From: an uncultured Candidatus Hydrogenedens sp.
GTDB taxonomy: Bacteria; Myxococcota; UBA4151
Assembly: GCA_902574205.1 (NCBI GenBank)
Contig: CACGMS010000002.1
Coordinates: 22,746 to 86,745 of the forward strand
Direction: 5' to 3'
Length of the DNA: 64,000 nt
Under the pieces are notes generated by a model. It made no database searches and had not been told where the DNA came from. It saw only the letters and a program-made list of their open reading frames with translations. The number at the start of each line of letters is the position of its first letter. Positions within the stretch are counted from its first letter, which is position 1. Both the position numbers and the translations under genes were made by a program. Shown in pieces: positions 25,488 through 63,307 of this stretch.

Positions 25488-25489
25488 TC

Positions 25490-27187: not shown

Positions 27188-27190
27188 GTT

Positions 27191-28411
27191 ATGCCGCTTT
27201 ACGAATACAAAGGGTTCAGTGCTTCAGGGAAAGCAGCGAAGGGTGTTCGCGATGCCGAAACACCCAAGGCTTTGCGCGCACAACTCCGTCGTGACGGTGT
27301 TTTTATTTCCGAGGTCAAAGAAGCAAAGGTTGAGAAGAAGCAAGGCAGCGCAAAAGCGTTATCAAGTGGCAAGGTTAATGTCCGTGTGTTGGCGGTGGTT
27401 ACGCGGCAATTTGCGGTTCTTATTCGTTCCGGTATCCCACTCGTTCCGGCGCTCACGGCATTGGCAGAGCAGGTTGAAGATGAACGATTAGCCCGTGTGC
27501 TCGCAGACGTTAAAGGGCGCGTGAATGAAGGGGCATCGCTTGCCGATGCCATGGGAGCTCACCCGAGAGCATTTTCAAATATTTATATCAATATGGTGCG
27601 TGCGGGCGAAAGCTCAGGTGCGCTCGATGTCGTTCTCGAGCGACTCGCCGATTTCACCGAAGGTCAAGCGGAACTCAAGTCGAAAGTTATCGGTGCTTTG
27701 ATCTATCCGGTGGTGATGGTGATCGCCGGTGCTTTAGTCATGTTTGGATTGTTTATCTTTGTGGTGCCGCGCATCACTAAGATTTTCTCGTCGGCTGAAG
27801 CTCAATTACCTTTGCTTACGCGCACACTGATCGGCTTATCCGAAGTGATGCGTAATCCGGTTTTGATGTTCGGCGTGTTGGCTTTATTGGTGGTGGGTTT
27901 CATTATCTTTCGAAATTGGGTCCGCACCGAGACCGGACGTCGAAGCTTTGATGCGTTTAAGCTTAGCTTGCCACTGTTTGGTCGTATTCACCGCATGGTC
28001 GCCATTGCTCGATTTGCGCGCACATTAGGAACACTCTTAGCCTCGGGTGTGCCGCTTTTAGCCGCCTGTAAAATTGTACGAAATGTGGTGAGTAATGAGG
28101 TGCTGGCTGAAACCATTGACGCAGCGGCTTTAGCTGTTAGCGAGGGCCAGAGCTTTGCTGCGCCACTCAAGCGTAGTGGTGAGTTTCCACCTCTCGTTCA
28201 TCACATGATTTCCGTCGGTGAACAAAGCGGTAAACTTGAAGGTATGCTCGAGAATGTGGCGACCGCATACGAACAACAGGTCGAAGTGACCGTCGGTGGT
28301 TTGACTTCGATTATCGAACCCATCTTGATTTTGTTTATGGGTGGCGGCGTGGCGACCGTCGTCTTTGCGATTTTGATGCCTATTTTACAAATGAACCAAT
28401 TCATCCGCTGA
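27191..28411 (+). CDS. gspF: Type II secretion inner-membrane platform protein GspF.
   Basis: 406 aa. Duplicated GspF domain, three TMs. Confidence 0.88.
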   Translation: MPLYEYKGFSASGKAAKGVRDAETPKALRAQLRRDGVFISEVKEAKVEKKQGSAKALSSGKVNVRVLAVVTRQFAVLIRSGIPLVPALTALAEQVEDERLARVLADVKGRVNEGASLADAMGAHPRAFSNIYINMVRAGESSGALDVVLERLADFTEGQAELKSKVIGALIYPVVMVIAGALVMFGLFIFVVPRITKIFSSAEAQLPLLTRTLIGLSEVMRNPVLMFGVLALLVVGFIIFRNWVRTETGRRSFDAFKLSLPLFGRIHRMVAIARFARTLGTLLASGVPLLAACKIVRNVVSNEVLAETIDAAALAVSEGQSFAAPLKRSGEFPPLVHHMISVGEQSGKLEGMLENVATAYEQQVEVTVGGLTSIIEPILILFMGGGVATVVFAILMPILQMNQFIR

Positions 28412-28422
28412 AAGGCGATTTC

Positions 28423-28854
28423 ATGGAAAACACATCAACAAAAATTCTGAAAGCAAGCGCAAGGCGCGGGATGACTTTGATCGAAATCCTTGTTGTGGTT
28501 GCGATTTTAGGCATGTTGGCAACGGCAGTAACTGTGACGGTGCTTGATCAGTTTGAAGACGCCAAGGGTGAACGCGCCCGTATGGATATTGCCGCGGTGA
28601 CCCAGGGCTTATCTGCCTATTACATCAAGATGGGTAAGTACCCGACGACGGGCGAAGGCTTGAGCAGTTTGGTCAGTCCTCCCAAAGGCAGCCCGCTGTT
28701 GAGTGAACTCCCTAAAGACCCGTGGGAAAACGAGTATAATTACGCCTATCCTGGCACGCGTAATGCCAAAGGTTTTGATTTGTGGAGTTCGGGTAAGGAC
28801 GGTCAATCTGGTAGCGAAGACGATATCGGTAACTGGAAAGACTCGGCTGAGTAA
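28423..28854 (+). CDS. gspG: Major pseudopilin GspG.
   Basis: Prepilin leader RRG|MTLIEILVVVAILGMLA with Glu+5. Confidence 0.87.
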   Translation: MENTSTKILKASARRGMTLIEILVVVAILGMLATAVTVTVLDQFEDAKGERARMDIAAVTQGLSAYYIKMGKYPTTGEGLSSLVSPPKGSPLLSELPKDPWENEYNYAYPGTRNAKGFDLWSSGKDGQSGSEDDIGNWKDSAE

Positions 28855-28857
28855 ATC

Positions 28858-29529
28858 GTGAGGATTCCTGCTTCTTCCTCAGCTTTTCGATCAGGTTTTA
28901 CCTTGATTGAGTTGATGGTCGCCATTGGTATTTTGGCGATTGTGACCGCAGGTGCTGTCAGTGGTATTTCGGCGGTCGATGGTGCTCGCACGCGCGAGGC
29001 CGCGGGAAAAGTTTCGGCAGCCGTTCGTGAGAGTTTCGATCGCGCCGCGCTGTCTGGTGAGATGCATCGATTAGTGTTTGAACTTGGTGGATCTGGAATG
29101 CGCCTTGAATCGGCCGATGGTTTCTTTGCGCTTCCTGCAGTCGGTGGTGATTTAGGCGAAACCGCAGAAGAGCGCGCAAGTCGCCTCGCAGAACAAGAAG
29201 AAGATTTATACGATGGCTTGAGCGATGAGGCGAAAGCTGGACTCAAGGCACTCAGACAGCCGCCGACTTGGAGTCCGGTTGATGGTCCGCTGGGTGAAGG
29301 TGTTGATTTAGGCAGCGCCAAAATCCTCTCATTTTGGTCGGACGCCTTTGAGCGCTTTCAATCCAAGGGCGAAGGGATTCTATATTTCTTTCCACGAGGA
29401 GAAACTCAAGACGCGGTCTTTTTCATCGGTGAAAGTGACGAGGAGAGTTTTACGGTTCGCGTGGACGGTATGGCTGCTCGTGTTCACGCTAAGTTTGGGC
29501 GTTACGATCACCGGGGTAAAGAGCTATGA
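28858..29529 (+). CDS. gspH: Minor pseudopilin (GspH-like).
   Basis: G|FTLIELMVAIGILAIV prepilin N-terminus. GTG start. Named by position in the operon. Confidence 0.6.
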   Translation: MRIPASSSAFRSGFTLIELMVAIGILAIVTAGAVSGISAVDGARTREAAGKVSAAVRESFDRAALSGEMHRLVFELGGSGMRLESADGFFALPAVGGDLGETAEERASRLAEQEEDLYDGLSDEAKAGLKALRQPPTWSPVDGPLGEGVDLGSAKILSFWSDAFERFQSKGEGILYFFPRGETQDAVFFIGESDEESFTVRVDGMAARVHAKFGRYDHRGKEL

Positions 29530-30128
29530 TGCGTGGTTTTACTTTACTCGAAGCGCTCGTTGCAATGGGCATTTTAGCCGGGCTGTTCACGGCGATCTAT
29601 GGCGTTCAAGCAAGTGCCGTACGTTCGGTTCGTTATGCTCGTGATTTGCAGCGTGCTGCGCTGCTTGCTCGTGATAAGGTTCTTGAAGTCGAATGGAAGC
29701 TCAAAAAGGATGGGTTTTCAGTTGCTGATATGACGATGGAAGGGGACTTTGATGATGCTCAGGCGCCTGAGTTTAAGTGGCGAGCTGAGATTCGTCGCGT
29801 TAAAGCGGAAGCTTTTGAAAATATGGCGACGCCCGCCATGGACGGTGAAGTGTCGCCGTTAGCTGGTGCTTTTGCCCCAGCATTTTCAATGATCGGTCGA
29901 CGCCTAGCCGATCAGGTTCGTGAGCTTCGTGTGGTCGTTTCGTGGAAAGATGGCACCTATGATGAATCGTTTGATGTCGTGACCCATATTGTTCAACTCA
30001 CTGGGATGGGCTCGTCGGCAGCTAGTCCGGTTCCCAATGCCGGTCCGGGAGGGACATCCCTGCTTCAGCAAATGAAAACGAAGGCTTCGACTACAACTGG
30101 TTCAGCGGCATCGGGAGCGAGAAAATGA
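29526..30128 (+). CDS. gspI: Minor pseudopilin (GspI-like).
   Basis: G|FTLLEALVAMGILAGLF prepilin N-terminus. ATGA coupling. Confidence 0.6.
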   Translation: MMRGFTLLEALVAMGILAGLFTAIYGVQASAVRSVRYARDLQRAALLARDKVLEVEWKLKKDGFSVADMTMEGDFDDAQAPEFKWRAEIRRVKAEAFENMATPAMDGEVSPLAGAFAPAFSMIGRRLADQVRELRVVVSWKDGTYDESFDVVTHIVQLTGMGSSAASPVPNAGPGGTSLLQQMKTKASTTTGSAASGARK

Positions 30129-30814
30129 ACCGCGGGTTTACTCTTCTAGAAGTGATGATTGCGACGGTTGTGGTAGGGATGATTGGTGTTTCTATTTACG
30201 GCGCTGTTGATCGTTCTTTTGAGCTCAAAGAAGAAGTCGCCGCCTATTCTGAGCGTTATCGTCAAGCGTACGTCGCGCTTGACCGGATGACGCGCGAGAT
30301 CAGCTCGGCATTTGTGTCCAAGCATGTCGAGCCCGGCGAGCCACGGGTCGAAACATTGTTCATGGGCGAAGATGATGAACTTCGCTTTACCGCCTTTTCC
30401 AATACTGTTTTGCGCGCTGGCGCCCGTCAGGGCGATCAAGAGACCATTCACTATCGCTTAGATAGCGACCCGGCCGGTCTTGAGACGGAAGGTAAATGTC
30501 TGATTCGTTGGTCGGCACCTCGTCTACTTGAAGATGCTGAAGACGACAGTAAGGGGCGGGATCGGGTCGTGATTTGCGGCGTGGATCGACTCGTCTTTAG
30601 TTATCATGCTCAGCGTGAGGACGATTGGTCAGAAGATTGGAAGACCACGGACTCACTGCGCGAATCGAAAGATTACGGTTTAGGGATTGAAGAGGTTCGA
30701 AAGCGTTTGCCTGATCGGGTTCGTATCGATCTCACTTTGATGATGCCTGATGACGAACCCAAGTTGTTTCGCACAGCCACGAAAGTACGCCTTCACAAGG
30801 CGCTAAACTTCTAA
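30125..30814 (+). CDS. gspJ: Minor pseudopilin (GspJ-like).
   Basis: G|FTLLEVMIATVVVGMIG prepilin N-terminus. ATGA coupling. Confidence 0.6.
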   Translation: MNRGFTLLEVMIATVVVGMIGVSIYGAVDRSFELKEEVAAYSERYRQAYVALDRMTREISSAFVSKHVEPGEPRVETLFMGEDDELRFTAFSNTVLRAGARQGDQETIHYRLDSDPAGLETEGKCLIRWSAPRLLEDAEDDSKGRDRVVICGVDRLVFSYHAQREDDWSEDWKTTDSLRESKDYGLGIEEVRKRLPDRVRIDLTLMMPDDEPKLFRTATKVRLHKALNF

Positions 30815-30820
30815 GGTGGG

Positions 30821-32245
30821 ATGATGCGAAGACGACGCGGTGTAGCTTTGTTGATGGTGCTTGCGACGGTGGCGGTGATGACCACCGTGGTCATGGAGTT
30901 TGTTCATGATAGTCAAGTGCGTAGTCGCATTGCAGCCAACGCTCGTGACTCGGTCCGTGCCTACTTTTTGGCGCGCTCGGGTATGGAGCTTTCGCGCTTG
31001 ATGATTGCGTTTATGAAGCAATCACCGTGTCCGGTGAGTAGTGGTCTTGCTTCGGTTCAAGCCTCTGTAGGCGGTGCTAAAGGTGGGACTTCAAACACCC
31101 CAGCAACCTGTGAAGATGAACTGCGAATTTTGCAGCAAATGCTCAATCTGCCGCCCACACCTTTTTGGAAGATGATTCCGATTACCTCAGAGCTCTTTCA
31201 AGGCGTCGCTGATGGATCATTTGGTTCGATGCTTGGTGTGCCTTCTCCGCCGCTCGTGATGGGCGTCGAAAGTTCTGATCCTTCAGCTCAACTCGCCGAT
31301 GTTGATGAGGGCTCAGGTGTCTTGTTTGGCGATATGCCAGGTTCGTTCAGTGTGGAGATTGATGATGAGGACCGAAAAATTCCGCTGAAAAGCTTATGGA
31401 AGGGTAGTCCTGCTCAGAATCGAGCAGCGATGATGCGTTTTGCCGCTTTGATCGCCCCTCCTCGCTATGACGCACTGTTTGGTGGTGTGAACAGTCGCGG
31501 TGAAGAAGTCGACCGGCAAGAGTTTTTATCGTCGGTCCTTGACTGGATGGATCCGGATACGACCATGTCAGAAATTGATCTTTTGACCGGTCGCCGAGTC
31601 ACGAGCACCTCACCTGAAGATGCACGTTATGATACGGATGAAGCGCCATATCGGTCGCGTAATGCGGTCTTTGATTCGATTGCTGAACTCCGCTTGGTTA
31701 AGGGTTTTTCCGATGAAGCGTACCGCGCTTTTGCTGATCATTTATCGATCTACAGCGAAGACAAAGTGAATATTGAATCGATGCTTGCTGGCTTACTTGG
31801 GCTCCAGCTCCCTGCACCAGACGGCGATATGACCGCAATGAACGCACCCTCTCAATTTTTAGCCGGTTTATCCGTCTGTTTGACAGCTGATCAGTTGGTT
31901 GCTGTCTGGCAGCGTGTTGGCTTGTGGTATCAGGCCATCAATAACTGTGTTTTGGTCGGCTTGTTGCCTGAAGAAATGCAAGTTGATGTGTTGTGTCCAT
32001 TAGAACCTAACCCGCCGATCAATCCGTTTCCCAAGTTCTTTGTCGAAGCCCTCGCTCAGTTGTCTGAAGCCGAAGGCATCGCCTTTGATAAAGGTAAGTG
32101 CGAGAACGCGGTGACCGCTACTTCACGTTATTTTAAACTGATCAGCCAAGCTCAAGTCGGCGATGCTCGCCGAACGTTGACGATGGTTATTCGCCACGCG
32201 CCTACGGATGCCCAGGAAGAGCGCTACTATTGGCGAGAGGAGTAA
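30821..32245 (+). CDS. gspK: Minor pseudopilin GspK (large, lacks Glu+5).
   Basis: MMRRRRGVALLMVLATVAVMT. 474 aa. Typical GspK size and position. Confidence 0.65.
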   Translation: MMRRRRGVALLMVLATVAVMTTVVMEFVHDSQVRSRIAANARDSVRAYFLARSGMELSRLMIAFMKQSPCPVSSGLASVQASVGGAKGGTSNTPATCEDELRILQQMLNLPPTPFWKMIPITSELFQGVADGSFGSMLGVPSPPLVMGVESSDPSAQLADVDEGSGVLFGDMPGSFSVEIDDEDRKIPLKSLWKGSPAQNRAAMMRFAALIAPPRYDALFGGVNSRGEEVDRQEFLSSVLDWMDPDTTMSEIDLLTGRRVTSTSPEDARYDTDEAPYRSRNAVFDSIAELRLVKGFSDEAYRAFADHLSIYSEDKVNIESMLAGLLGLQLPAPDGDMTAMNAPSQFLAGLSVCLTADQLVAVWQRVGLWYQAINNCVLVGLLPEEMQVDVLCPLEPNPPINPFPKFFVEALAQLSEAEGIAFDKGKCENAVTATSRYFKLISQAQVGDARRTLTMVIRHAPTDAQEERYYWREE

Positions 32246-32247
32246 TT

Positions 32248-34263
32248 ATGGCTGCCCAACTAGGCCTAATTGATTTGAGTACAAAACGGTTGCGTATACT
32301 CGCTGCAGAGGCGGGTGGTCGGCGCGATGAACCTAGCTTGCTGCGTCGCGAAGAGTCACTCGAGGAGGGTCTTGATAGTCTTCCTGACGTGCTTGACCAG
32401 TTGCTCGAAGAGGGTGTGCTGAGCCCTGGTCGCTGGCAGTTGGCATTAAGCGGTGATTTGGTCACTTTTCATCGGATGCATAGTCCGTTGAAAGACCAAC
32501 GCAAAGTGCGGCTTACATTAGAGTTTGAGCTAGAAAACGCGCTTCCCTTTCGCAGTGAGGATGTCGTTGTTTCTCCGATTTTGCGTAAAGCTGAAGACGG
32601 AACCGATATTTTAGCGTTCGTCACGCGTCGCGACGTTCTTGAGCCTTTGATCGACTGTTTCCAGGCGCGCCGAATCGAAACTGTACAGGTCGTTCCAAGT
32701 GCATTTGGTGCTGTTCCTGTCGATTTGTGCGCAAGTGGACGTCATCTGCTCCTTGATCTTGGAAAAGAGCAGATTGATGTGGTGGCGATTGAGGATGGAT
32801 CGATCGAGACGATGGTTACTTTACCGGGTGGCGGAGACTTGGTCACTGCCGCGCTGCGCCGCAGTCACTTCCTTGATGTTCAAGAGGCAGAGCACGCCAA
32901 GGTTTTTGAGGGAGAAACCGTAGAGGGGCGAGAGGCTCTTGCACCAGCGATTGAAGCTTTTACCGAGCATGTTCAGCGAGCGGTTCGAGGGGGCTTGAGG
33001 ACAGCCAATTGGCGCCAAGCTACAGTGCATCTAAGCGGAGGAGCAGCCTGCTTGACAGGATTGGTTGAGCGGTTGCACGAGCGCACGGGATTACGTGTCT
33101 TTCGTGTTGAAAATGTCGATTCGCTGACACCCAGTGCGCAAGAGGCATGTGCACTTGCTGCAGAGGTTGGTCATCTGCGCTCTGTGGTCAAAGGAGGTGG
33201 CTTTAAGCCGGTCAACTTACGAGCAGGCGACCTTGCACATACCACAGATGTGATGAAGGTTTTACAGGGCTTTCGCCCGGTTGCTGGTTGGGCTGCAGCC
33301 GTCTTGATTTTAGTCCTGATGCAGTTTTTTGCCGGGGTGTCGGCGCGCGATGCGCGAGCGGCTCGGTTTGAGTCGGCACGACGGCAGGCTTGTGCCGATA
33401 TCGCGGGGATAACGAGCGCGAACGCAAGGCAGTGTCTCGCAGCGATGAACGAGACCATTGCAGGTACCGGATCGGGCGATATCCCGCGTTTTGACGCCAT
33501 CGATCTGTTTTCACGCATCTCCCAAGCGGTTCCGACAGATTTGGAGGTTAAGCTTGATGATATTCGTATTGATGGGCGATCGTTACGTTTAGCTGGAACT
33601 ACGACTGGCTTTCAACAGGCACGTAGTCTCGTTGACGCGTTATCGGTGGTGCGTTGTGTCGTTGGTTTACGCTCGGATAAGACGGTCAAAAAGGGTGATA
33701 AGGTGATGTTTTCACTGACGGGACGAATCGATTGTTCGGTCAAGCCTACAGACCCGGAGGCGCCCGCATCGCCGTCCGGTCAAAGTCGGGTTCAAAGCGC
33801 TACTCCCAGCGAGTCATCGGGTGCGTCGATCGATTCAAAGCGAAAGGAGAAAAAAGCACCTTCGCTGCCGGTTAAGGACCCGTCATCAGCTAAGGATTTT
33901 GGCAAAGGATTTAGGGGGTCATCACCGACGCAGACACAGCGTCAAGCAGAACAGCAAAAACGACTACGCGCCCAGGGGGATTCGGCAAAGGTCATTGAAG
34001 GTCCGGGCGAGGATGCAGAAGCCGAGGATAACACGGAAGCCGACGAGACCACGGAAGCCACGGGTTACGATGAACCGATTGTTGACCCTGCAACAGGAGT
34101 TACTGTCCCTTCAAGAATTCCAAATCCTTACCCAGGGATCAAACCCTTTCCGGGTGGCTCGCTCAAGCTTCCAAATGGGATCGGTAATGTGATGAAATTA
34201 CCGGAAGATACTTTGGTTGGTGTCCCTCCAGCGGACATGGACACTGAGGAGGGCGACGAATGA
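32248..34263 (+). CDS. gspL: GspL-like assembly platform protein with a roughly 200-aa disordered C-terminal extension.
   Basis: ATG 32248 after GAGAGGAG is the likely start; the ORF track's 32230 is TTG. Actin-like cytoplasmic domain, then TM (GWAAAVLILVLMQFFAGV), a periplasmic domain and a long Pro/Ser/acidic tail. Confidence 0.62.
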   Translation: MAAQLGLIDLSTKRLRILAAEAGGRRDEPSLLRREESLEEGLDSLPDVLDQLLEEGVLSPGRWQLALSGDLVTFHRMHSPLKDQRKVRLTLEFELENALPFRSEDVVVSPILRKAEDGTDILAFVTRRDVLEPLIDCFQARRIETVQVVPSAFGAVPVDLCASGRHLLLDLGKEQIDVVAIEDGSIETMVTLPGGGDLVTAALRRSHFLDVQEAEHAKVFEGETVEGREALAPAIEAFTEHVQRAVRGGLRTANWRQATVHLSGGAACLTGLVERLHERTGLRVFRVENVDSLTPSAQEACALAAEVGHLRSVVKGGGFKPVNLRAGDLAHTTDVMKVLQGFRPVAGWAAAVLILVLMQFFAGVSARDARAARFESARRQACADIAGITSANARQCLAAMNETIAGTGSGDIPRFDAIDLFSRISQAVPTDLEVKLDDIRIDGRSLRLAGTTTGFQQARSLVDALSVVRCVVGLRSDKTVKKGDKVMFSLTGRIDCSVKPTDPEAPASPSGQSRVQSATPSESSGASIDSKRKEKKAPSLPVKDPSSAKDFGKGFRGSSPTQTQRQAEQQKRLRAQGDSAKVIEGPGEDAEAEDNTEADETTEATGYDEPIVDPATGVTVPSRIPNPYPGIKPFPGGSLKLPNGIGNVMKLPEDTLVGVPPADMDTEEGDE

Positions 34264-40558: not shown

Positions 40559-40612
40559 CCAAGACGGTTGTGGCGCCTAGAAGCGCACGCTTCTCGACCC
40601 AATGGAGAGATC

Positions 40613-42595
40613 ATGAATGAAGCTAAAGGCGGCGCAGGAGCCTATCTCCTCGTCATGTTAATTGCCGGCGGTGCCGGTTTCTATTTTGGACAGCAAAGTG
40701 CCGGTACACCGGCAACAGCAGCAGTCGACGGTGATATCGATTGCAACTCTGACGCCGTTCAAGAGTGTCTCAATGCTGAACCGATTTACAAGATTCCAGT
40801 TGGTGATGCGGCGACTAAAGGTAACCCTGAGGCGCTGGTGACGATCGTTGAAGTTAGCGATTTCCAATGTCCCTTCTGTAATCGAGTCAATAAGACCATC
40901 GATCAGTTGATGAAGGGTAAGTACGGCAAAGATTTGCGAGTCGCATTTTATCACAACCCCCTTGGTTTTCATAATCGCGCTGAGCCTGCGGCGGTCGCTG
41001 CGGAAGCGGCGGGTCGACAAGGCAAGTTCTGGGAAATGCATGACAAATTGTTCGCTAACTTGCGAAACCTGACCGACGCCAACTTTGATAAGTGGGCAGG
41101 TGAACTTGCTTTGGATATGACCAAGTTTAAAGCGGATCTCAAAGATCCCGCGTTGCTCAAGAAAGTTAAGGCACAGCAAGCCACAGCGGTGAAGCTCGGT
41201 GCCCGAGGTACCCCAGCTTTCTTCATCAACGGTCGCTTCTTGAGCGGCGCTCAGCCGCTCGCTAAGTTTGAAGAAGTGATCGAAAAGGCGCTCAAAGACG
41301 CCAAGAAGCAGATCAAGAAGGGCGTTGCTGCAAAAGATGTCTACGCAAAGATCATCGAAAAGGGCGCAACCTCGAAGGTGAACAACCCGGCTCCTGCCGC
41401 AGCGCAGCCGCCTGCGCGTCCCAAGCCTCCGGCGGATACGCGTCAAAACGTGCCGGTCAAGAAGAGCTACCGCGGTAAAGGGACCTGGCCTGCTAAGGTG
41501 GTGATCGTTGAGTACTCTGACTTTGAATGTCCCTTCTGTTCACGTGGTGCAAAGACTGTCGAAGACATCATGAAGAATCACGGCAAAGACGTGTACTTTA
41601 TCTACAAGCACAACCCCTTAGGCTTCCACCCCAATGCTGAGCCTGCCGCACGCGCTTGTGAAGCCGCGGGTATGCAGGGCAAGTTCTTTGAAATGCACGA
41701 CAAGATGTTCGCTGATTATAAAAATCTCACGCAAGAGAACTTTGAGAAATGGGCGAAAGAACTGGGTCTGAATGTCGCCAAGTTCAAGAAGGACATGAAC
41801 TCGCAAAAGGTCAAAGATATCGTCAAAGCTGACGTCGCCGAAAGCGCGAAGGTTGGCGCTCGGGGTACCCCGAACTTCTTCGTCAACGGTATTCCCGTTC
41901 GCGGGGCGCTCCCTTATGATCGCTTCAAGCCAACCATCGAAGCCGAACTCAAAAAGGCGGACGCGTTGATCAAGAAGGGCGTGAAGCTCAAAGATGTGTA
42001 TGCTGAAGTGATGAAGGAGGCCGGTAAGCCTGCTCCGAACTTCAAGCTGCCGAACGCGCCGGTCAAACCTAAGGGTCCAGTCAAAGTCGATGACCACCCA
42101 GAGGACATGGCATTTGGTCCGAAGAACGCCAAAGTTACGATTTACGAGTTTAGTGACTTTGAATGTCCCTTCTGCTCAAAGGGTGCCGACACCATCACGG
42201 CGCTTAAAAAAGAGTATGGCGATAAGATTCGAGTGGTGTTCAAGAACTTGCCGCTGTCCTTTCATAAGAACGCAGAACTTGCGGCGAGAGCAGCTCATGC
42301 AGCCGGTAAGCAAGGTAAGTTCTGGGAAATGCACGATAAACTGTTCGCTAACTTTCGCACTTTGGGCGAAGCATCGATTAAGGGCTTTGCCAAAGAAATT
42401 GGTGTGGACATGGCGAAGTGGGAGAAAGATCTCAACAGTGAGTCGACCAAAGCGAAAGTTGAAGCCGATAAGAAACTCGCCAATAAGGTGGGTGCTCGGG
42501 GAACGCCCAACTTCTATATCAATGGTGATCACCTTGCCGGTGCTCAGCCGATCGATCGGTTCAAGGCGATTATCGATAAGCATTTGAAGAAATAA
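40613..42595 (+). CDS. Membrane-anchored protein with three tandem DsbA-like thioredoxin-fold domains (thiol:disulfide oxidoreductase).
   Basis: ATG 40613 after GGAGAG. TM (AYLLVMLIAGGAGFYF). Three repeats, each with a C-P-F-C active site (DFQCPFCNR, DFECPFCSRG, DFECPFCSKG), the ...FH... motif and the cis-Pro loop (GARGTP). Confidence 0.8.
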   Translation: MNEAKGGAGAYLLVMLIAGGAGFYFGQQSAGTPATAAVDGDIDCNSDAVQECLNAEPIYKIPVGDAATKGNPEALVTIVEVSDFQCPFCNRVNKTIDQLMKGKYGKDLRVAFYHNPLGFHNRAEPAAVAAEAAGRQGKFWEMHDKLFANLRNLTDANFDKWAGELALDMTKFKADLKDPALLKKVKAQQATAVKLGARGTPAFFINGRFLSGAQPLAKFEEVIEKALKDAKKQIKKGVAAKDVYAKIIEKGATSKVNNPAPAAAQPPARPKPPADTRQNVPVKKSYRGKGTWPAKVVIVEYSDFECPFCSRGAKTVEDIMKNHGKDVYFIYKHNPLGFHPNAEPAARACEAAGMQGKFFEMHDKMFADYKNLTQENFEKWAKELGLNVAKFKKDMNSQKVKDIVKADVAESAKVGARGTPNFFVNGIPVRGALPYDRFKPTIEAELKKADALIKKGVKLKDVYAEVMKEAGKPAPNFKLPNAPVKPKGPVKVDDHPEDMAFGPKNAKVTIYEFSDFECPFCSKGADTITALKKEYGDKIRVVFKNLPLSFHKNAELAARAAHAAGKQGKFWEMHDKLFANFRTLGEASIKGFAKEIGVDMAKWEKDLNSESTKAKVEADKKLANKVGARGTPNFYINGDHLAGAQPIDRFKAIIDKHLKK

Positions 42596-47719: not shown

Positions 47720-48568
47720 GTGATTGCTGCTCAAGACCTGGTTGCTCAGGTTGCTCAAGCTACCGAATCGGTACGCAGCGCTGGAATTGGCGAGGTGGAC
47801 TTTGCTGTTGTCTTGGGTTCGGGGTTGTCAGCTTTTGCGGATGACTTGGATCAACCGATCCGCCTTCCATACAAAGATATACCGGGGTTCAAGACGGCCA
47901 CCGTCAAGGGTCATCGCGGTGAACTCTTGTACGGTGAGCTCGCAGGTTACCGCATCCTGGTATTTTCGGGGCGCATGCATTTGTACGAAGGGATTGAGCC
48001 GTGGCGCGCAGGGTTGCTGCCTCGTCTCGCCGCTGCTCTTGGTGCGCGACTGTTCCTGGTGACAAACGCTAGTGGCGGTATTCCTGGCAAAGGTTTAGAG
48101 CCGGGTGACTTGATGCGCATCACGGATCAGATCAACGCCCAAGGCACGAATCCTTTGGTTGGCGACCATGACGAGCGCTTGGGGGCACGATTCCCCGACA
48201 TGGGCCAGCCTTACGACCGCGCATTGGGTGCGCATCTTGATACGTTGGCAGCTCGCCTCGGAGTCCCTTTGAAGCGAGGTGTGTATATTGGGGTTTTGGG
48301 GCCGGGCTATGAGAGCCCAGCAGAGGTTCGAATGTACGGACTGATGGGCGCTGATACCATTGGCATGAGTACGGTTGGCGAAGTTTTGGTCGCTCGCCAG
48401 GTGGGTCTTCCTGTCGTCGGCGTGAGCTGTATCTCGAATTACGCGGCAGGGAACGATGGAGAAGAGGTGTTAACGCACGCTGATGTGACTGAAGTCGTGG
48501 GCGCTGCGGCTAAACGCTTTGTTCAGCTTCTTCGATCAGCAGTGCCTTATTTGATGGAGCGATTGTGA
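47720..48568 (+). CDS. Purine nucleoside phosphorylase (trimeric PNP-I/PunA family).
   Basis: GTG start after AGGAG. VVLGSGLS...HRGELLYGEL...MSTVGEVLVARQVGLPVVGVSCISNYAAG motifs. Confidence 0.87.
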   Translation: MIAAQDLVAQVAQATESVRSAGIGEVDFAVVLGSGLSAFADDLDQPIRLPYKDIPGFKTATVKGHRGELLYGELAGYRILVFSGRMHLYEGIEPWRAGLLPRLAAALGARLFLVTNASGGIPGKGLEPGDLMRITDQINAQGTNPLVGDHDERLGARFPDMGQPYDRALGAHLDTLAARLGVPLKRGVYIGVLGPGYESPAEVRMYGLMGADTIGMSTVGEVLVARQVGLPVVGVSCISNYAAGNDGEEVLTHADVTEVVGAAAKRFVQLLRSAVPYLMERL

Positions 48569-48590
48569 TCGCATTCAGCTCGCCGATGAG

Positions 48591-48620
48591 GGGATGCGCT
48601 TACATCCCTTTGGATTTGGT
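48591..48620 (+). terminator. Candidate rho-independent terminator after the nucleoside operon.
   Basis: GGGATG-cgctta-CATCCC stem followed by tttggatttgg. Confidence 0.45.
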
Positions 48621-48723
48621 CCGAAAGACGTGAACGAACAAGGACTGAAATTGATGTGCTGCGGTGAGTAGCGGTCTGCCACGAACTCAGGTAACATCTG
48701 ACGACTTTGAGGAGCTTAGAAAC

Positions 48724-50694
48724 ATGCGGATAGCGGGACTTTCGCTGTGGTGTTTTGTGATGATGTCGTGTGCGCCGACGGTGAACGCGCCAGAGCTTTT
48801 GCAGGATACAGGGAGTGGCCCGCCGTCTGCTGCAGACGCGGCGGTGGTTGCGGATAGCGGCGCGCCTCCCGCGACGACGGATGCGGGTGTTCTGGATGCA
48901 ACCGATCCTGAGTCCGAGTGTTTGAGCGACATCAACTGCCCACGTGGTCAATATTGTTTGGATTCTCGCTGCGTTGATCAATGCGTTGATGATTCCGGTT
49001 GTCCCGAGGGCAGCATTTGTGAGGTGAATGGCCGCTGTCGCGTCGGCTGTCGTAACGATGCGGCGTGCGGCGCAGGCTCGATCTGTATTGATGAAAGTTG
49101 CACGCCAGGCTGTCGCGATGACGAGGCCTGCGAAGGCCGTCAGATCTGTAATGATAATCGGTGCGTTAATGGTTGTCGCGGTGATGCGATCTGTCCAGCC
49201 GGTCAAATTTGTCTCGATGATGTCTGTCGGTCGGGTTGTCGAAGCGATGAAACCTGTCCGGATGCGCACATCTGTGAAGATGACATCTGTCGCGTCGGTT
49301 GTCGCGAAGACGACGGCTGCGCTGCTCGGCAAATCTGCGTTGAGACGCGCTGTCAGGCGGGTTGTCGAAGCAACGAAGGCTGCGGCCTAGGTCAGCTTTG
49401 CGCCAACAACATCTGTATTCCAGGGTGCATTGAGACGGCTCGTTGTCCTGAAAATCAGGTCTGTCGTGCCGGGCAGTGCGCCGACGGCTGTCGCAGCAAC
49501 GAGGCATGCGCGATTGGTCAGGTCTGCAACGAGGATGGGTTGTGTATTCCTGGCTGTCGCGACGATGAGGGTTGTCCTCAGGGACAGTTCTGCAACGACG
49601 CAAGTCAATGCGCGCCTGGCTGTCGAGCTAATGCCGAATGTCCTCAGGGACAAGCGTGCATCGACAACAGTTGCCAAGACGGCTGTCGTGCAGACGCCGA
49701 ATGTCCCGTGAACAACGTCTGCGCCGACGGTCGCTGCATCAACCAGTGTCGCACGGCGGAACAGTGCAACGTCGGTCAGTATTGTGAGGGCGCTCAAGGA
49801 AACCAGTTGGGTGTATGCGTCGATGGATGCGTCGAGGACAGCAATTGCGGCGACGACAGGATCTGCTCGAACCGAGCGTGTGTTGAAGGTTGCCGCAACG
49901 ATGATGCGTGCCCTCGAGGGTATGCCTGCATCGACAATCAGTGCGCCTATCGTTGCACGCAACAAAACGGCTTTACATGTCCGGGCGGGCAAGTCTGCAA
50001 TCGCTTAGCAAGCCAATGTGTCGAGTGCTTACAAGAGAGTGATTGTGACGCCGGGTTGTTGTGTAATCGGCAAACGCTCACCTGCGAGCGCTGCCAGAAT
50101 AACGCACAGTGTGGTCAAGGCCGTGTGTGCTCAGAGGCGCGAGGCTGCGTGGGCTGTGCGCAAAATAGTGACTGTGCGCAAAACCAGCAATGTGATGTTC
50201 AACGAGGCGTCTGTGTCGATGGTGCGAACGGTGCACTGTATTGCCAGGCATGTAATGATCAAACCCCGTGTGCAGGGGGTATGCGCTGCGTTGGTTTCGG
50301 TCGAGATACACCGCGCAATCGATGCCTGAATACCTGTCAAGATGCCGATGATTGTATTAGCGGTACCCGCTGCGCTGATGGGGTCTGCCAACCGGTGAAC
50401 TACTTAGGGAATACGTGGTGGACAGGGCGGGTAACCGGCAGTAGGCAGGCGAGCTCTTGCGAGGCTGTTTTGAATACGGGAACGCCGTGTCAGAACGCCG
50501 CAACCTGTGACCGGATTGATGATCGTGGCTTCACTGCCGGTCATTGCGGTAGCCAGGGCGCCGCACGCGGGATGTGTACCAAGGTCTGTCGTCTGGATCG
50601 CACCTATAACCCAGCAGAGTGCCCGGTGGGTTGGTCATGTGCCAGTGTACCCCGTTGGGGAGGCAGGTACGGTCAATGCGAGCCTAACCAGTAA
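48724..50694 (+). CDS. Secreted cysteine-rich repeat protein, with at least 12 tandem 21-aa four-Cys modules (Myxococcales-type Cys-rich repeat).
   Basis: ATG 48724 after GAGGAG. Signal peptide MRIAGLSLWCFVMMSCAPTVNA. Modules of the type GCRxDxxCxxGQxCxDxxCxx recur from about aa 100 to 360. Further Cys-rich motifs run to the C-terminus. Confidence 0.8.
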   Translation: MRIAGLSLWCFVMMSCAPTVNAPELLQDTGSGPPSAADAAVVADSGAPPATTDAGVLDATDPESECLSDINCPRGQYCLDSRCVDQCVDDSGCPEGSICEVNGRCRVGCRNDAACGAGSICIDESCTPGCRDDEACEGRQICNDNRCVNGCRGDAICPAGQICLDDVCRSGCRSDETCPDAHICEDDICRVGCREDDGCAARQICVETRCQAGCRSNEGCGLGQLCANNICIPGCIETARCPENQVCRAGQCADGCRSNEACAIGQVCNEDGLCIPGCRDDEGCPQGQFCNDASQCAPGCRANAECPQGQACIDNSCQDGCRADAECPVNNVCADGRCINQCRTAEQCNVGQYCEGAQGNQLGVCVDGCVEDSNCGDDRICSNRACVEGCRNDDACPRGYACIDNQCAYRCTQQNGFTCPGGQVCNRLASQCVECLQESDCDAGLLCNRQTLTCERCQNNAQCGQGRVCSEARGCVGCAQNSDCAQNQQCDVQRGVCVDGANGALYCQACNDQTPCAGGMRCVGFGRDTPRNRCLNTCQDADDCISGTRCADGVCQPVNYLGNTWWTGRVTGSRQASSCEAVLNTGTPCQNAATCDRIDDRGFTAGHCGSQGAARGMCTKVCRLDRTYNPAECPVGWSCASVPRWGGRYGQCEPNQ

Positions 50695-50736
50695 AGTCAG
50701 ACACTCGCCTAATCTCAAGATCAAGATGTGACGAAG

Positions 50737-50766
50737 GAACCCTTAAGGGTTCTTTTGTCCTTTTTG
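50737..50766 (+). terminator. Rho-independent terminator.
   Basis: GAACCC-ttaa-GGGTTC perfect palindromic hairpin followed by ttttgtccttttt. Confidence 0.6.
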
Positions 50767-50778
50767 AGGAGCTTGCCT

Positions 50779-53121
50779 GTGGCCGAGTCCAGCACACTGA
50801 TTAATGTCTATAAAGAGGCCGCGCGTCTTTGCACTGAGGTGGGAAAACGTTCTGAGCCGCAAAGCTTTTATTTGCTGATGGCGCTGTACACGACGCCCAA
50901 CCCGACCGGCGATTTTTTGCGCGCGCATGGGATCGAAGAAGACCTGTTGCTCGATGTTTTTCCTAAGGCATGGATTGAGCCGAGCGGCACTGCCCAAAAG
51001 TTGAGAAATGAAGCGATGCAAGAAGCCGAGAGACTCGGTGATCACTGGACCAATTCGTATCATCTGTTACTCGCTTTGATCGCCGATACCGAAGGTCGAG
51101 CGCGAATCGCTTTGGAACGAGCTGTCCAAGAACGCCATATTGAACTCAGGAAATTGCGCCAACGTTGTCATAAACTGCTGGCGAAACATCGCCATGATGT
51201 TCATCGGCGAGCAGGCGCTGCGTCGGTTCAGCGAGCGCATAATAGTCGCCCTCCTCAAAGCGGTAGTCGAACACCAGAAGCGGTGGGAACAGCGACCATT
51301 GCTCCGGTCGAAGTCGACCCGTGTGAACCGGCGACGCTGTTGCCGCACTTTTCAGTATCCTCGACGCCGACTTTGGATAGCCTGTGTATTGACTTGATCG
51401 CTCAAGCCAAGGGCGGAGCACTCAACCCCGTCGTCGGTCGAGAGGTTGAACTCGCTAAAACACTCGACGTTCTGGGTAAACGCCAAGCGAATAATCCCCT
51501 CATTATTGGACCGTCTGGCGTCGGTAAAACCGCTTTGGTTGAAGGGCTTGCCATCGCCATCTCGGGCGGTGAGGCAGGACCGCTTAACGACAAACGCTTA
51601 CTCGCCTTAGAGGTCGGCGCTTTGCTTGCAGGAACAGCGCTTCGAGGTTCGCTCTCTGAGCGCCTTGCGGGTGTTCGTCGAGAGGTGGCTGCGGGCGGCG
51701 CCGTGTTGTTTATCGATGAGTTGCACAGTTTGATGGGCAGTGGGTCTGAAGGTGGAGGCGGCAATGGAGCAGCTGATGAACTCAAGAGCGCTTTAGCTCG
51801 CGGTGAACTTCCATGCATTGGAGCAACCACTGAAGAGGAATATCAGCGACACATTGCGAAGGACCCCGCTTTAGCTCGTCGATTCACGCCGATTTATTTG
51901 GCTGAGCCTGAGCCCGAGGAAGCTGAAGCGATGATCACCGGCAGTTTGCCCGCTTATGAAAGTCATCATGGCTGCTCGTTTGAGCCGGCTACGGTCACCG
52001 CAGCGGTGCGGTTGAGTCATCGCTACATCAGCGAAGGTGCGTTACCTGCCAAGGCTTTTGATATCCTTGATTTAGCGGCTTCTCGCTCGGTTCGGCGCGG
52101 CGATCAGGTGGTTACCAAACGCGCCGTTGCCGAAGTGGTCGCCGAAGCTCTACGCATGCCCGTTGAGCGTATCGATGGCGGCGACGAAGAGCGATTGCTC
52201 AATCTTGAATCGATTATGGCTGATCGGGTCGTTGGGCGTGAGCAGGCGATTACTCGCATCAGCGAGACGTTACGACGTAACCAAGCCGGCTTTGGTGGAC
52301 GTCGACCCATTGGTTCGTTCTTATTGCTCGGCCCAACCGGTGTCGGGAAGACTGAAGTTGCGCGTGCGCTGAGCGACGTCTTGTTTGGCAGCAGTGATGA
52401 TTTGCTGCGTTTTGATATGGGTGAGTTTACTGAGAGTCATTCGGTTGCCCGCTTGATTGGGGCACCTCCCGGTTATGTCGGTCATGAAGACGGTGGACAA
52501 TTAACCGAAGCCGTTCGCCGCAAACCGTATCGAGTGTTGCTTTTTGATGAGGTAGAAAAAGCTCATCCTGACGTGCATCAGGTGTTGTTGTCTTTGCTTG
52601 ACGAAGGCCGCGTCAGTGACGGGCGCGGTATTCGTGTCAGCTTTAGGCATTGCTTGGTCATTCTTACTTCGAATCTAGGTGCTGTGCGTTCGTCGGAGCG
52701 GCGGATTGGCTTTGGCGGAGCCGTTGAGCCTGTCGAAGCGATTCAGAGTTCAGCGTTGATCGATGCAGCAAAGACTGCGATGCCGCCCGAACTTTTTGGC
52801 CGAATTGACGAAGTGCTCGCCTTTCCGATGTTGACACGCACGGAAGCCGTGCAGATTGCTGAGCGATTGTTAGCATCGTCATTGGCGCGTCTTGAGCAGG
52901 AACGTCGAATAACGGTCAACAGCACCGCCGGTGTGGTCGAGTGGTTGGTCGACGAAGGGTTCACGCCCCAAGACGGAGCGCGTCCGATGCGCCGTTTGAT
53001 TCAAAGGCAGGTCGAGGGCTTGCTCGCTCAAAGTGTGTTACGCGGTGAACTCAAAGCTGGAGATCAAGCGGAGCTAATTTCCGATGATCAGGGGCTGAAG
53101 GTGCTGTGCGTACCGCAGTAA
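50779..53121 (+). CDS. ClpA/ClpC-family AAA+ ATPase (two nucleotide-binding domains, Clp_N).
   Basis: GTG 50779 after GAGGAG. Clp_N repeats. D1 Walker A GPSGVGKTAL. D2 Walker A GPTGVGKTEVARAL. An IGFG ClpP-docking-type loop. The ORF-track start 50728 would span the upstream terminator hairpin. Confidence 0.85.
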   Translation: MAESSTLINVYKEAARLCTEVGKRSEPQSFYLLMALYTTPNPTGDFLRAHGIEEDLLLDVFPKAWIEPSGTAQKLRNEAMQEAERLGDHWTNSYHLLLALIADTEGRARIALERAVQERHIELRKLRQRCHKLLAKHRHDVHRRAGAASVQRAHNSRPPQSGSRTPEAVGTATIAPVEVDPCEPATLLPHFSVSSTPTLDSLCIDLIAQAKGGALNPVVGREVELAKTLDVLGKRQANNPLIIGPSGVGKTALVEGLAIAISGGEAGPLNDKRLLALEVGALLAGTALRGSLSERLAGVRREVAAGGAVLFIDELHSLMGSGSEGGGGNGAADELKSALARGELPCIGATTEEEYQRHIAKDPALARRFTPIYLAEPEPEEAEAMITGSLPAYESHHGCSFEPATVTAAVRLSHRYISEGALPAKAFDILDLAASRSVRRGDQVVTKRAVAEVVAEALRMPVERIDGGDEERLLNLESIMADRVVGREQAITRISETLRRNQAGFGGRRPIGSFLLLGPTGVGKTEVARALSDVLFGSSDDLLRFDMGEFTESHSVARLIGAPPGYVGHEDGGQLTEAVRRKPYRVLLFDEVEKAHPDVHQVLLSLLDEGRVSDGRGIRVSFRHCLVILTSNLGAVRSSERRIGFGGAVEPVEAIQSSALIDAAKTAMPPELFGRIDEVLAFPMLTRTEAVQIAERLLASSLARLEQERRITVNSTAGVVEWLVDEGFTPQDGARPMRRLIQRQVEGLLAQSVLRGELKAGDQAELISDDQGLKVLCVPQ

Positions 53122-61360: not shown

Positions 61361-63307
61361 TCAAGCGGGTTGTGGCGTGTTGGTGATTGTCTTGAGACGA
61401 TGGCTAGCGTCCAAGAAGTCAGCATCACTGCGCACGACCCGTTTGAGATAGTAACTCGCTTCGTCCATATCTTCCATGCTTTGGTACGCACATGCGAGCT
61501 CGTAGTGGACAAAAATGCGCAAGTCTTCGGGCAGATCTTCGCCATGTAAAGAGCGTTTCAAGAAGCTGATACCCCTTGGGATCTTATTGAGATCTTGGAG
61601 TGCAATACCGGCAAGATAATGTGCTGTCGCCTGCCCGGGAACCGATTTCTCGACCCAGTCACGCAGTGCATCAATCGCCAGTTGTGCATCACCTTGATTG
61701 ATCTGGTCTCGAATGGCGCTGTAGTGAGAGGGGATACCTCCAGGCAAATCTGGCACACGAGGCCCCTCGTGTCGCGCGGCTTGCCGAGCTTCCAAGCGTT
61801 CGAGCCGTATTTGTAACTCTGGATGGTCGGGAAAGATTTCAAGACCGTCGCGAATGAGTTGTGCCGCTTTATCTTGATTTCCTTGTCGGCTGGCGAGGTC
61901 GACATCAGCAATGACTTGGTTGATCGGGTCAACGGTCATCGACACATCGAGTTCATTGTTGGCGAGCTCGGCGGTTGCAGCCGCTAAGAGCTCGTCGAGG
62001 TCATCGGTATTCCATGAGCTGTTGGTCGCATTGCTACGCACTACCGTCTGACCGAGTTCTTGGAGTTGTTTGCGAAAATGTGATTCTTGTTCTGTGTTTC
62101 CTTGAGCCGAAGCTTCTTCGATGAGCGCAATGAGTTGTCGTACCGCACCCGACTTGTCATCCAGTTCAAGGTAAGCTTTGAGCAGCTTTTGTCGCATAGG
62201 AATGTCTTCGCCGCGCATTTGAACCGCTCGAATCAAGCAATCTCGTGCGCGGCTGAGTAAGCCCAATTGAGAAAAGCTTTCGGCTTCGGCTGCTAAGCGA
62301 TTAACTTGAGTTGACTCTCTGCGATTGAACATCCCTGTTGCTTCTGAACGAACAGGTTCAAGTGGGTCGGGTGCTTCTCTAAAACCAGGGGATTGACCAC
62401 TAAACTGTGGATCAAGCTGCAAGAATCTCATCGCTTCTTGATCTCCTGGTGTGAGTTCGAGGACTTTTTGAAAGAGTTCTTTCGCTTTGTCGGTATGCCC
62501 AGCCTGCTCGAAAACCAAAGCCCGCTCACGCATCACGCGGGCGGCTTTCTTTGGTTGGTCCAGACCAAGAAAAGCTTCGGCCATAATAGCGAGTGTATCT
62601 GGATTACGAGGTTCGCGTTTAAAAACGGTTTGAATGCGCGCCAACGCGGCGCGCGCGTTTCCTTGTTCAATATGGGCTTTAGCGACTTGAAGCACCATTT
62701 TTATATCGCCTGGTTTGAGTTTGATCAGCCGCTCTGCGACTTTGATAAACTCGGCAAGCCTTCCCTGTGTTTTTAGTGTTTTAGCGGCGTCTTTTATGCT
62801 GCTAAAGCCTTGCTCTCGACGCCCTGCTTTAATCAGCGCATCACCGTGGCGCAGTCGCGCTGTGACATTTTCAGGAGCGATTTGTACGAGGCGCTCAAGG
62901 AGGGATAACGCCTCTGGCTCATCACCTGCCTTTTGATGAATTCGAATCGCCGTCGTGAGGCTAGCAATCGCTTCAGCTTTGAGTTCCATTTTGAGGTGTA
63001 GATCAGCCAGTCGGCTGTGCACTTTCGGATTATTGGGTGCTAGTCGTTGGGCTTGCTTGTAGACCGCAACCGCCCGAGCAAAAAATCCTTGTCGTGTATG
63101 GTGCTCGGCGACGGTCATGTGAACGTCGAGAGCCTCTTCAGGTTGCCCATGTCGCGCGAGCACTTCTGCGAGTTTGTGTTGCGTTCGCATATCCGAAGGC
63201 TCTTCATCGCGCAGCACTCGGTAGGCATCGATGGCTTTTTCTAGCTGGCCTTTTTGCGCCAGTTTAGCTGCAGCTTCGATTCGAGTTTTGCGTTTTTGGT
63301 CCGACAA
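61361..63307 (-). CDS. TPR-repeat protein (648 aa).
   Basis: Multiple TPR units (A..Y...L.....A). Confidence 0.75.
   Translation of the reverse strand: MSDQKRKTRIEAAAKLAQKGQLEKAIDAYRVLRDEEPSDMRTQHKLAEVLARHGQPEEALDVHMTVAEHHTRQGFFARAVAVYKQAQRLAPNNPKVHSRLADLHLKMELKAEAIASLTTAIRIHQKAGDEPEALSLLERLVQIAPENVTARLRHGDALIKAGRREQGFSSIKDAAKTLKTQGRLAEFIKVAERLIKLKPGDIKMVLQVAKAHIEQGNARAALARIQTVFKREPRNPDTLAIMAEAFLGLDQPKKAARVMRERALVFEQAGHTDKAKELFQKVLELTPGDQEAMRFLQLDPQFSGQSPGFREAPDPLEPVRSEATGMFNRRESTQVNRLAAEAESFSQLGLLSRARDCLIRAVQMRGEDIPMRQKLLKAYLELDDKSGAVRQLIALIEEASAQGNTEQESHFRKQLQELGQTVVRSNATNSSWNTDDLDELLAAATAELANNELDVSMTVDPINQVIADVDLASRQGNQDKAAQLIRDGLEIFPDHPELQIRLERLEARQAARHEGPRVPDLPGGIPSHYSAIRDQINQGDAQLAIDALRDWVEKSVPGQATAHYLAGIALQDLNKIPRGISFLKRSLHGEDLPEDLRIFVHYELACAYQSMEDMDEASYYLKRVVRSDADFLDASHRLKTITNTPQPA

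Follow-up and report, generated by a model that had tools for sequence, protein, structure and literature searches.

A predicted lipoprotein with twenty tandem four-cysteine modules and a rare C-terminal domain in an uncultured Candidatus Hydrogenedens sp. (Myxococcota)

Tandem repeats rich in cysteine are known from TraA of Myxococcus xanthus (MXAN_6895), for which the role of a rigid stalk of β-hairpins, stiffened by disulfides, has been proposed (PMC3325183, PMC6372800, PMC12045341). Several of these repeats are not required individually (PMC6372800), in AlphaFold models they make up a shaft of β-hairpins with stiffening disulfides (PMC12045341), and the model TIGR04201 (Myxo_Cys_RPT) was built from them (PMC3325183). 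In animals, the DPY module of Dumpy has two disulfides with the spacing Cx5Cx5Cx4C and is architecturally similar to the modules of CREMP, in which a hairpin is covered by an N-terminal loop and the disulfide pairing is Cys1-3 and Cys2-4 (PMC12723725). We describe here a cysteine-rich gene on the forward strand of a 64,000-nucleotide (nt) stretch of contig CACGMS010000002.1, referred to below as the window, from an uncultured Candidatus Hydrogenedens sp. of the Myxococcota. The open reading frame (ORF) extends from the ATG at 48724 to the stop codon at 50692-50694 (48724-50694, +) and encodes a protein of 656 amino acids (aa), whose parts are the following:

48709..48714, + strand: Shine-Dalgarno sequence GAGGAG, 9 nt 5' of the ATG (read from the sequence; conserved in the relatives L020 and L022)
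48724..48771, + strand: predicted lipoprotein signal peptide MRIAGLSLWCFVMMS with lipobox Cys16 (PROSITE-style lipobox regular expression; orthologs)
48772..48912, + strand: tether of about 47 aa (aa 17-63), rich in Ala, Pro, Asp, Gly, Ser and Thr, predicted disordered (predicted local distance difference test, pLDDT, about 37; variable length between orthologs)
48919..50241, + strand: array of 20 tandem four-Cys modules of 21-22 aa each, aa 66-506 (Cys-spacing segmentation, periodicity, hidden Markov models (HMMs), AlphaFold2)
50242..50691, + strand: conserved Cys-rich C-terminal domain, aa 507-656, with 18 Cys (alignment with homolog C-termini)
50692..50694, + strand: stop codon TAA (read from the sequence)

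Along the array the Cys-to-Cys spacing recurs as 6-6-5/6-4, now and then with a longer hairpin loop. The near-canonical pattern C-x5-C-x5-C-x4/5-C-x3 was found in 16 of the 20 modules, the spacing being slightly altered in the last four, and exact modules of 21 aa number 12. The computed consensus, C-R-x-D-x-x-C-P-x-G-Q-I-C-x-D-N-x-C-x-x-G, matches the motif GCRxDxxCxxGQxCxDxxCxx proposed in a first-pass annotation of this DNA. That annotation had claimed at least 12 modules; the tandem four-Cys array stands, and its number is corrected to 20, with about three further degenerate units in the C-terminal domain. The identity of the protein with itself was 0.26 at a lag of 21 aa, and the maximum in 500 shuffles was 0.17; the periodicity is therefore more than an effect of composition, in agreement with what had been expected from a self-comparison. 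At the DNA level the self-identity was 0.41 at a lag of 63 nt. Tandem Repeats Finder reported nothing on the array because its units are too diverged: the mean identity among the 12 exact modules was 40% in amino acids and 48% in nucleotides, close to the 50% estimated beforehand, and it fell to 32%, near random, at third codon positions. A recent expansion of the repeats was rejected, since the modules have diverged and their number is the same in orthologs of 70-81% identity. Judged from these comparisons of sequences, and as the annotation had held, the array is old and stable.

The composition of the protein is unusual. Cysteine accounts for 100 residues (15.2%), fewer than the roughly 110 first estimated, and there are only 2 His. 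The protein is also strongly acidic and nearly free of Lys, which occurs once in the 656 aa as compared with 5.45% in the large ORFs of the window, Arg being at 7.6%. The lone Lys is K621, in the CTKVC of the C-terminal domain; it is kept in the close orthologs, each of which has exactly one Lys, and the distant homologs P0005 and P0006 have none.

The close orthologs were found on the contigs L020/L021, L022 and L023, which are fully syntenic with the window and share the order triple-DsbA, UDG, DeoC, thymidine phosphorylase, NupC-type transporter, PNP, Cys-rich gene, ClpC-like gene, DUF2520, EEP, FolD and, farther along, a Ser/Thr kinase. Their Cys-rich proteins, of 658, 661 and (partial) 454 aa, had 70%, 73% and 81% identity to the window protein, with the module number unchanged and every Cys kept, and the ClpC-like neighbour was 84-95% identical. 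When the Cys-rich gene was compared with these orthologs, the proportion of nonsynonymous differences (pN) was 0.12-0.19 and that of synonymous differences (pS) about 0.78, that is, with synonymous sites saturated. By regions, pN was lowest in the repeats (0.12-0.16), intermediate in the C-terminal domain (0.22-0.23), and highest in the tether (0.37). Because pN is this low while synonymous sites are saturated, the gene is real, as had been annotated, and is under strong purifying selection. The ATG at 48724 is conserved in relatives too, and an in-frame GTG upstream of it, at 48664, is without counterpart in L022.

These orthologs of 70-81% identity were reached only through the ClpC-like neighbour, though they are present in the same collections that were searched with the Cys-rich protein; a word-indexed search can miss close relatives of low-complexity repeat queries. 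Such a search gave 97 relatives of the Cys-rich protein, the best with 40% identity, and a scan of GTDB gave orthologs of 28-46% identity only. Among the more distant proteins, P0004 (692 aa) and P0005 (687 aa) aligned with the query from end to end. The relatives with a named organism all belong to Myxococcota, Myxococcales, Polyangiales, Deltaproteobacteria or metagenome-assembled genomes labelled 'Proteobacteria'.

The family of the repeats was assigned with profile models. Pfam DUF7107 (PF23416) matched in 7 stretches with 45.3 bits (E 1.1e-11), passing its gathering threshold of 24.6 clearly, and is precomputed on most of the homologs; its model of 48 positions covers about two 21-aa modules and, being that of a domain of unknown function, implies no mechanism. 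TIGR04201 was marginal: with the repeats scanned by themselves it reached 25.5 bits (E 9.7e-6, 10 stretches), its cutoff being 25; against the full-length protein it gave no match at E<=1, and the orthologs P0004 and P0005 scored 24.1 and 22.1 bits, under the cutoff. The resemblance to the Myxococcales Cys-rich repeat family, which had been suggested together with an HMM search as its check, is borne out clearly by one model and, on the repeat region alone, marginally by the other. From its sequence, we assign the protein to the DUF7107/TIGR04201 group of Cys-rich repeat proteins; repeats of this type have been described before in myxobacteria, and here they are joined to an uncharacterised C-terminal domain.

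The window protein and TraA are both exported Myxococcota envelope proteins, predicted as such in our case, with tandem repeats of about 20-22 aa situated between a membrane anchor and another domain. The polarity is reversed: in the window protein the lipobox anchor is N-terminal and the other domain C-terminal, whereas TraA has an N-terminal PA14-like head and a C-terminal MYXO-CTERM. There are 20 regular four-Cys units as against nine less regular ones in TraA, the SCNCCP motif is absent, and the locus is without a traB partner, no traB-like neighbour of the gene having been found. No PA14-like domain was present among the Pfam matches of the protein, no MYXO-CTERM model (TIGR03901) appeared among the NCBIfam matches at E<=1, and the C-terminus, ...RYGQCEPNQ, has neither a hydrophobic helix nor an Arg-rich tail. 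The TraA model NF033759 gave 31.5 bits with the full protein and 31-47 bits overall, very far under its cutoff of 750, and only its positions 307-397, which are the Cys-rich region, were matched. On these grounds we rejected the protein as a TraA ortholog (NF033759 score, no PA14, no MYXO-CTERM) and as a MYXO-CTERM protein (no TIGR03901 match, no hydrophobic tail). A role as a TraA-type receptor for kin recognition or outer-membrane exchange, for which the weak match to the Cys-rich part of NF033759 could be adduced, seems to us close to negligible, considering the score, the missing PA14-like variable domain, MYXO-CTERM match, hydrophobic tail and traB-like neighbour, and that the orthologs are under purifying and not diversifying selection.

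Prediction with AlphaFold2 was carried out on the full protein and on a four-module fragment. The full model had a mean pLDDT of 72, with values above 90 for aa 150-380, and in each module it was possible to see a 3-residue helical (310) turn followed by a 4+4 β-hairpin ('310 turn + EEEE--EEEE'). The same pattern was obtained with the fragment, at a pLDDT of 90.8. Of the disulfide-knotted hairpin stack that had been anticipated, the disulfide-stabilised β-hairpin in each module agrees with the prediction, and in place of a compact stack both the predicted model and the solved analogues suggest a string of modules. Foldseek searches against the PDB with the full model and with the four-module fragment gave no match at E<=1e-3 except one to mastigoneme, which is geometrically meaningless (TM-score 0.07). 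Local superpositions, none of them significant, were obtained with the squash-type knottin core and with Dickkopf Cys-rich regions (0.4-1.0 Å over 20-22 residues), and one module superposed on the squash inhibitor MCTI-A (1mct_I) with 0.4 Å over 20 residues and 40% identity. Pfam and PDB gave weak matches as well, with the N-terminal region of Dickkopf and with a Cys-rich fragment of Dkk2.

The segment of the squash inhibitors that corresponds to the module has the spacing Cx5Cx5Cx4/5C and the pairing 1-3 and 2-4, plus a third disulfide that closes the knot. This third disulfide is missing here, unlike in squash knottins, and the likeness is one of sub-structure and not a family relationship. 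Squash trypsin inhibitors and the Ascaris carboxypeptidase inhibitor were matched locally, which might be read as the sign of a multi-headed protease inhibitor made of knottin-like units; we find this most improbable, as the match is limited to the two-disulfide hairpin core, every Foldseek E-value was above 0.1, and the module presumably also lacks the N-terminal reactive-site loop of the squash inhibitors.

By sequence, the best PDB match was the DPY module of Dumpy (1OIG), with PECVLNSDCPSNQACVNQKCRD aligned to PGCRANAECPQGQACIDNSCQD. Pfam DPY (PF21164) gave 19.3 bits (E 0.0011) in a single stretch, aa 298-319, below its gathering threshold of 27. We built a position-specific scoring matrix from 418 bacterial modules, on which the DPY sequence scored 10.8 bits as compared with -17.5±8.5 for shuffles with the Cys fixed, a score reached by 2 of the 10,000 shuffles (p ~2e-4). 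The 12 exact modules have the spacing Cx5Cx5Cx4C identical to that of DPY and about its 21 residues, and there are shared preferences outside the Cys: D/N at +3, P after C2, and G/N-Q before C3. The context is different, given that Dumpy alternates DPY with EGF modules in a giant protein of the animal extracellular matrix and here the modules are directly in tandem in a predicted bacterial lipoprotein. That the bacterial module is a true homolog of the animal one, and not a product of convergence, we regard as unlikely on these alignments. With CREMP (avian eggshell membrane protein, PDB 9PGB) the likeness lies in the tandem small two-disulfide modules, which in CREMP form an extended string (PMC12723725); its spacing is Cx4Cx5Cx8C, it is a eukaryotic fibre protein, and neither sequence nor Foldseek matched it to the Cys-rich protein. 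Taking the alignments and the models together, the module would work like a DPY or knottin-core unit.

The N-terminus was analysed with a lipobox rule of the form {DERK}(6)-[LIVMFWSTAG](2)-[LIVMFYSTAGCQ]-[AGS]-C, with the Cys at positions 15-35 and K/R near the N-terminus. The regular expression was satisfied at Cys16, R2 being present, and in the syntenic orthologs L020 and L022 both Cys16 and the A-[PQ]-T-V that follows it are conserved. Among 99 fetched relatives, of which 92 begin with Met, the rule fits 49, and canonical lipoboxes such as LTGC, LTSC, VGAC and SAGC are present in homologs. The protein had been described as secreted; we correct this to a predicted lipoprotein, given the fit to the lipobox rule and the conservation of Cys16 in orthologs and in about half of the homologs.

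Taking these parts in order from the N-terminus, it is possible to propose how the protein is built. Cys16 would carry the lipid anchor after cleavage by signal peptidase II, and the flexible acidic tether of about 47 aa would come next. Then about 440 aa would be laid out as 20 two-disulfide modules, head to tail, in each of which a short turn would lie over a β-hairpin stapled by C1-C3 and C2-C4. Leaving out Cys10 of the signal peptide and the lipidated Cys16, 98 Cys could pair into 49 disulfides, and with so many of them folding would have to depend on periplasmic Dsb oxidation. The repeat array would be a stiff stalk or spacer, resistant to proteases and to shear, as proposed for the Cys-rich stalk of TraA, and the C-terminal domain a probable interaction module. 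We lean, with modest confidence, toward an outer-membrane lipoprotein in which a rod of disulfide-stapled modules holds the C-terminal domain out from the membrane. The gene, its periodicity and conservation, the lipobox, the family matches and the predicted fold of the module come directly from the analysis; that the protein is lipidated, lies in the outer membrane or at the surface, pairs its disulfides as proposed and has the shape of a rod that serves as a stalk is what we infer.

Another use of so much cysteine would be the binding of metals, one of the functions that had been suggested. A metallothionein-like or copper-binding envelope protein with reduced thiols would be in keeping with 15% Cys and with the faint MopE-like matches in some neighbours of homologs. 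Its likelihood is very low in our view: export would bring the protein into an oxidising compartment, its mature form has 98 Cys, an even number, their spacing is identical to that of known two-disulfide modules (PMC12723725), AlphaFold2 puts them at hairpin and loop positions typical of disulfides, and only 2 His are available.

Within the C-terminal domain, which the rod would display, there are about three degenerate modules and an insert of about 60 aa (aa 558-617) that is not made of repeats. The 18 Cys of the domain are invariant when it is aligned with the C-termini of P0004, P0005, P0098-P0104, P0107, P0112, P0116 and P0117. It aligns at the extreme C-termini, in proteins 366-721 aa long, and upstream of it there are Cys-rich repeats in varying number or other regions, such as a Big_9 domain in P0117. 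The length of the stalk would vary, then, since relatives with the same C-terminal domain are between 366 and 692 aa long. The domain is rare, with 26 matches at E<=1e-3 among 1.84 billion cluster representatives. It had no match to a Pfam family, and its profile gave nothing significant against PDB sequences, the best being Dkk2 with E 0.07. Among the homologs with at least three modules, the repeats are N-terminal with more than 150 aa after them in 51 of 85, and the reverse layout occurs in 7 of the 85, which favours a stalk; the C-terminal parts fused to them include PPC, LTD, Bmp, choice-of-anchor D and lipase domains.

Several results weigh against the anchored stalk. No recognised 'head' domain was found in the Cys-rich protein, and there is no conserved partner gene: at the loci of distant orthologs (P0004 locus, L001, L003, L005, L007) the neighbouring genes differ from those of the window, apart from a common Ser/Thr kinase family. 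The predicted template modelling score of the AlphaFold2 model is low (0.43), and the pLDDT is about 30 for aa 560-629, in the C-terminal insert. Besides, the repeats themselves could be the functional surface and not a passive spacer. The array would then act at the surface as a multivalent adhesin, or as a fibre of structural or matrix type, comparable to the eggshell fibres of CREMP or the tension-bearing filaments of Dumpy, and the C-terminal domain would be a mere cap. In favour of this, about 70% of the mature protein consists of the repeats, its most conserved region, the protein is strongly acidic and almost without Lys, and its closest structural analogues, DPY and CREMP, are modules of fibres (PMC12723725). 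This possibility seems to us the less likely one, because there are a predicted N-terminal lipid anchor and a distinct, conserved C-terminal domain, because in most homologs the repeats lie between the anchor and another domain, and because a cross-linking motif is not evident. The anchored stalk is the reading that we prefer.

The remaining features of the locus are two ORFs on the opposite strand and a hairpin downstream of the gene:

48547..49332, - strand: antisense ORF of 261 aa, artefact (codon-aligned antisense frame)
49387..49992, - strand: antisense ORF of 201 aa, artefact (codon-aligned antisense frame; bounded by the sense CTA at 49387)
50730..50759, + strand: 13-pair hairpin GACGAAGGAACCC-TTAA-GGGTTCTTTTGTC, followed by a T-run (consensus scan)

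The sense gene holds only 6 TTA, CTA or TCA codons, which are the sole source of stops in the codon-aligned antisense frame; for the second antisense ORF the next of them is the TTA at 50005, just upstream of the antisense start. Both were rejected as real genes, being artefacts of the codon frame, which is how they had already been interpreted.

The hairpin is part of an intergenic element at 50709-50759, CTAATCTC...AGATGTGACGAAGGAACCCTTAAGGGTTCTTTTGT, of which about 45 nt are invariant in five relatives while the flanking genes are saturated at synonymous sites. It can be drawn as a 13-pair RNA hairpin with two G·U pairs or as a perfect 16-bp DNA palindrome, and its sequence occurs once in the window. 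The T-run 3' of it is not conserved in L019 and L020, and Rfam gave no match on the locus, hairpin included. It lies about 20 nt upstream of the Shine-Dalgarno sequence and GTG of the ClpC-like AAA+ gene (50728-53121), which probably starts at the GTG at 50779, preceded by GAGGAG, and not at the GTG at 50728; the gene calls of L019 and L023 begin at the codon equivalent to GTG 50779. The hairpin may be the terminator of the Cys-rich gene or a 5' element of the ClpC-like gene, and may act as a regulatory element, considering that its conservation exceeds what a plain terminator needs.

On the other side of the gene, relatives have a cytidine deaminase gene between PNP and the Cys-rich gene (L020 7487-7885, L022 7461-7871), and in the window there is only a gap of 155 bp (48569-48723). 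Farther upstream, at 40568-42595, there is a triple-DsbA protein of 675 aa with three DsbA-like thioredoxin domains, whose position is kept in L020, L021 and L022. Around the distant orthologs of the Cys-rich gene it was not found within ±8-10 kb; the specific link between the two genes that had been suspected finds no support, as they are co-conserved only through synteny of the whole block in close relatives. An apparently complete type II secretion system (T2SS) cluster is located at 23073-34263, with the GspD secretin, GspE, GspF, pseudopilins including J- and K-like ones, and a PilM/GspL-like protein; 14 kb separate it from the Cys-rich gene, with housekeeping genes between them. MYXO-CTERM proteins use the T2SS (PMC11980579), and the Cys-rich protein differs from these in being without the MYXO-CTERM tag. 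Over positions 1-54000 of the window the GC skew, at about +0.12 to +0.18, is strongly positive, and nearly all genes are on the + strand; past about 54 kb the skew falls towards zero, where gene orientation flips. Very large tetratricopeptide-repeat proteins (782, 1322, 650 and 648 aa) are encoded at 1327-9589 and 61361-63307.

Cys-rich repeat proteins are abundant in the envelopes of Myxococcota, and of them only TraA has been studied, for whose repeats the stalk is no more than an assumption. Bacterial and animal two-disulfide fibre modules are linked by the resemblance to DPY, CREMP and the knottin core, and none of this overturns the current understanding. If the homology with DPY were true, a building block of insect apical-matrix fibres would have a bacterial counterpart or origin, the protein would be a lipid-anchored, tension-bearing tether, and the rare 18-Cys domain would be a previously undescribed docking domain. 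The protein described here is an unusually clean case, with 20 regular modules, a simple predicted layout of anchor, tether, rod and domain, orthologs for comparison, and a confident model for each module, and it would be suited to measuring the mechanics of a disulfide-stapled rod and the binding by its rare C-terminal domain.

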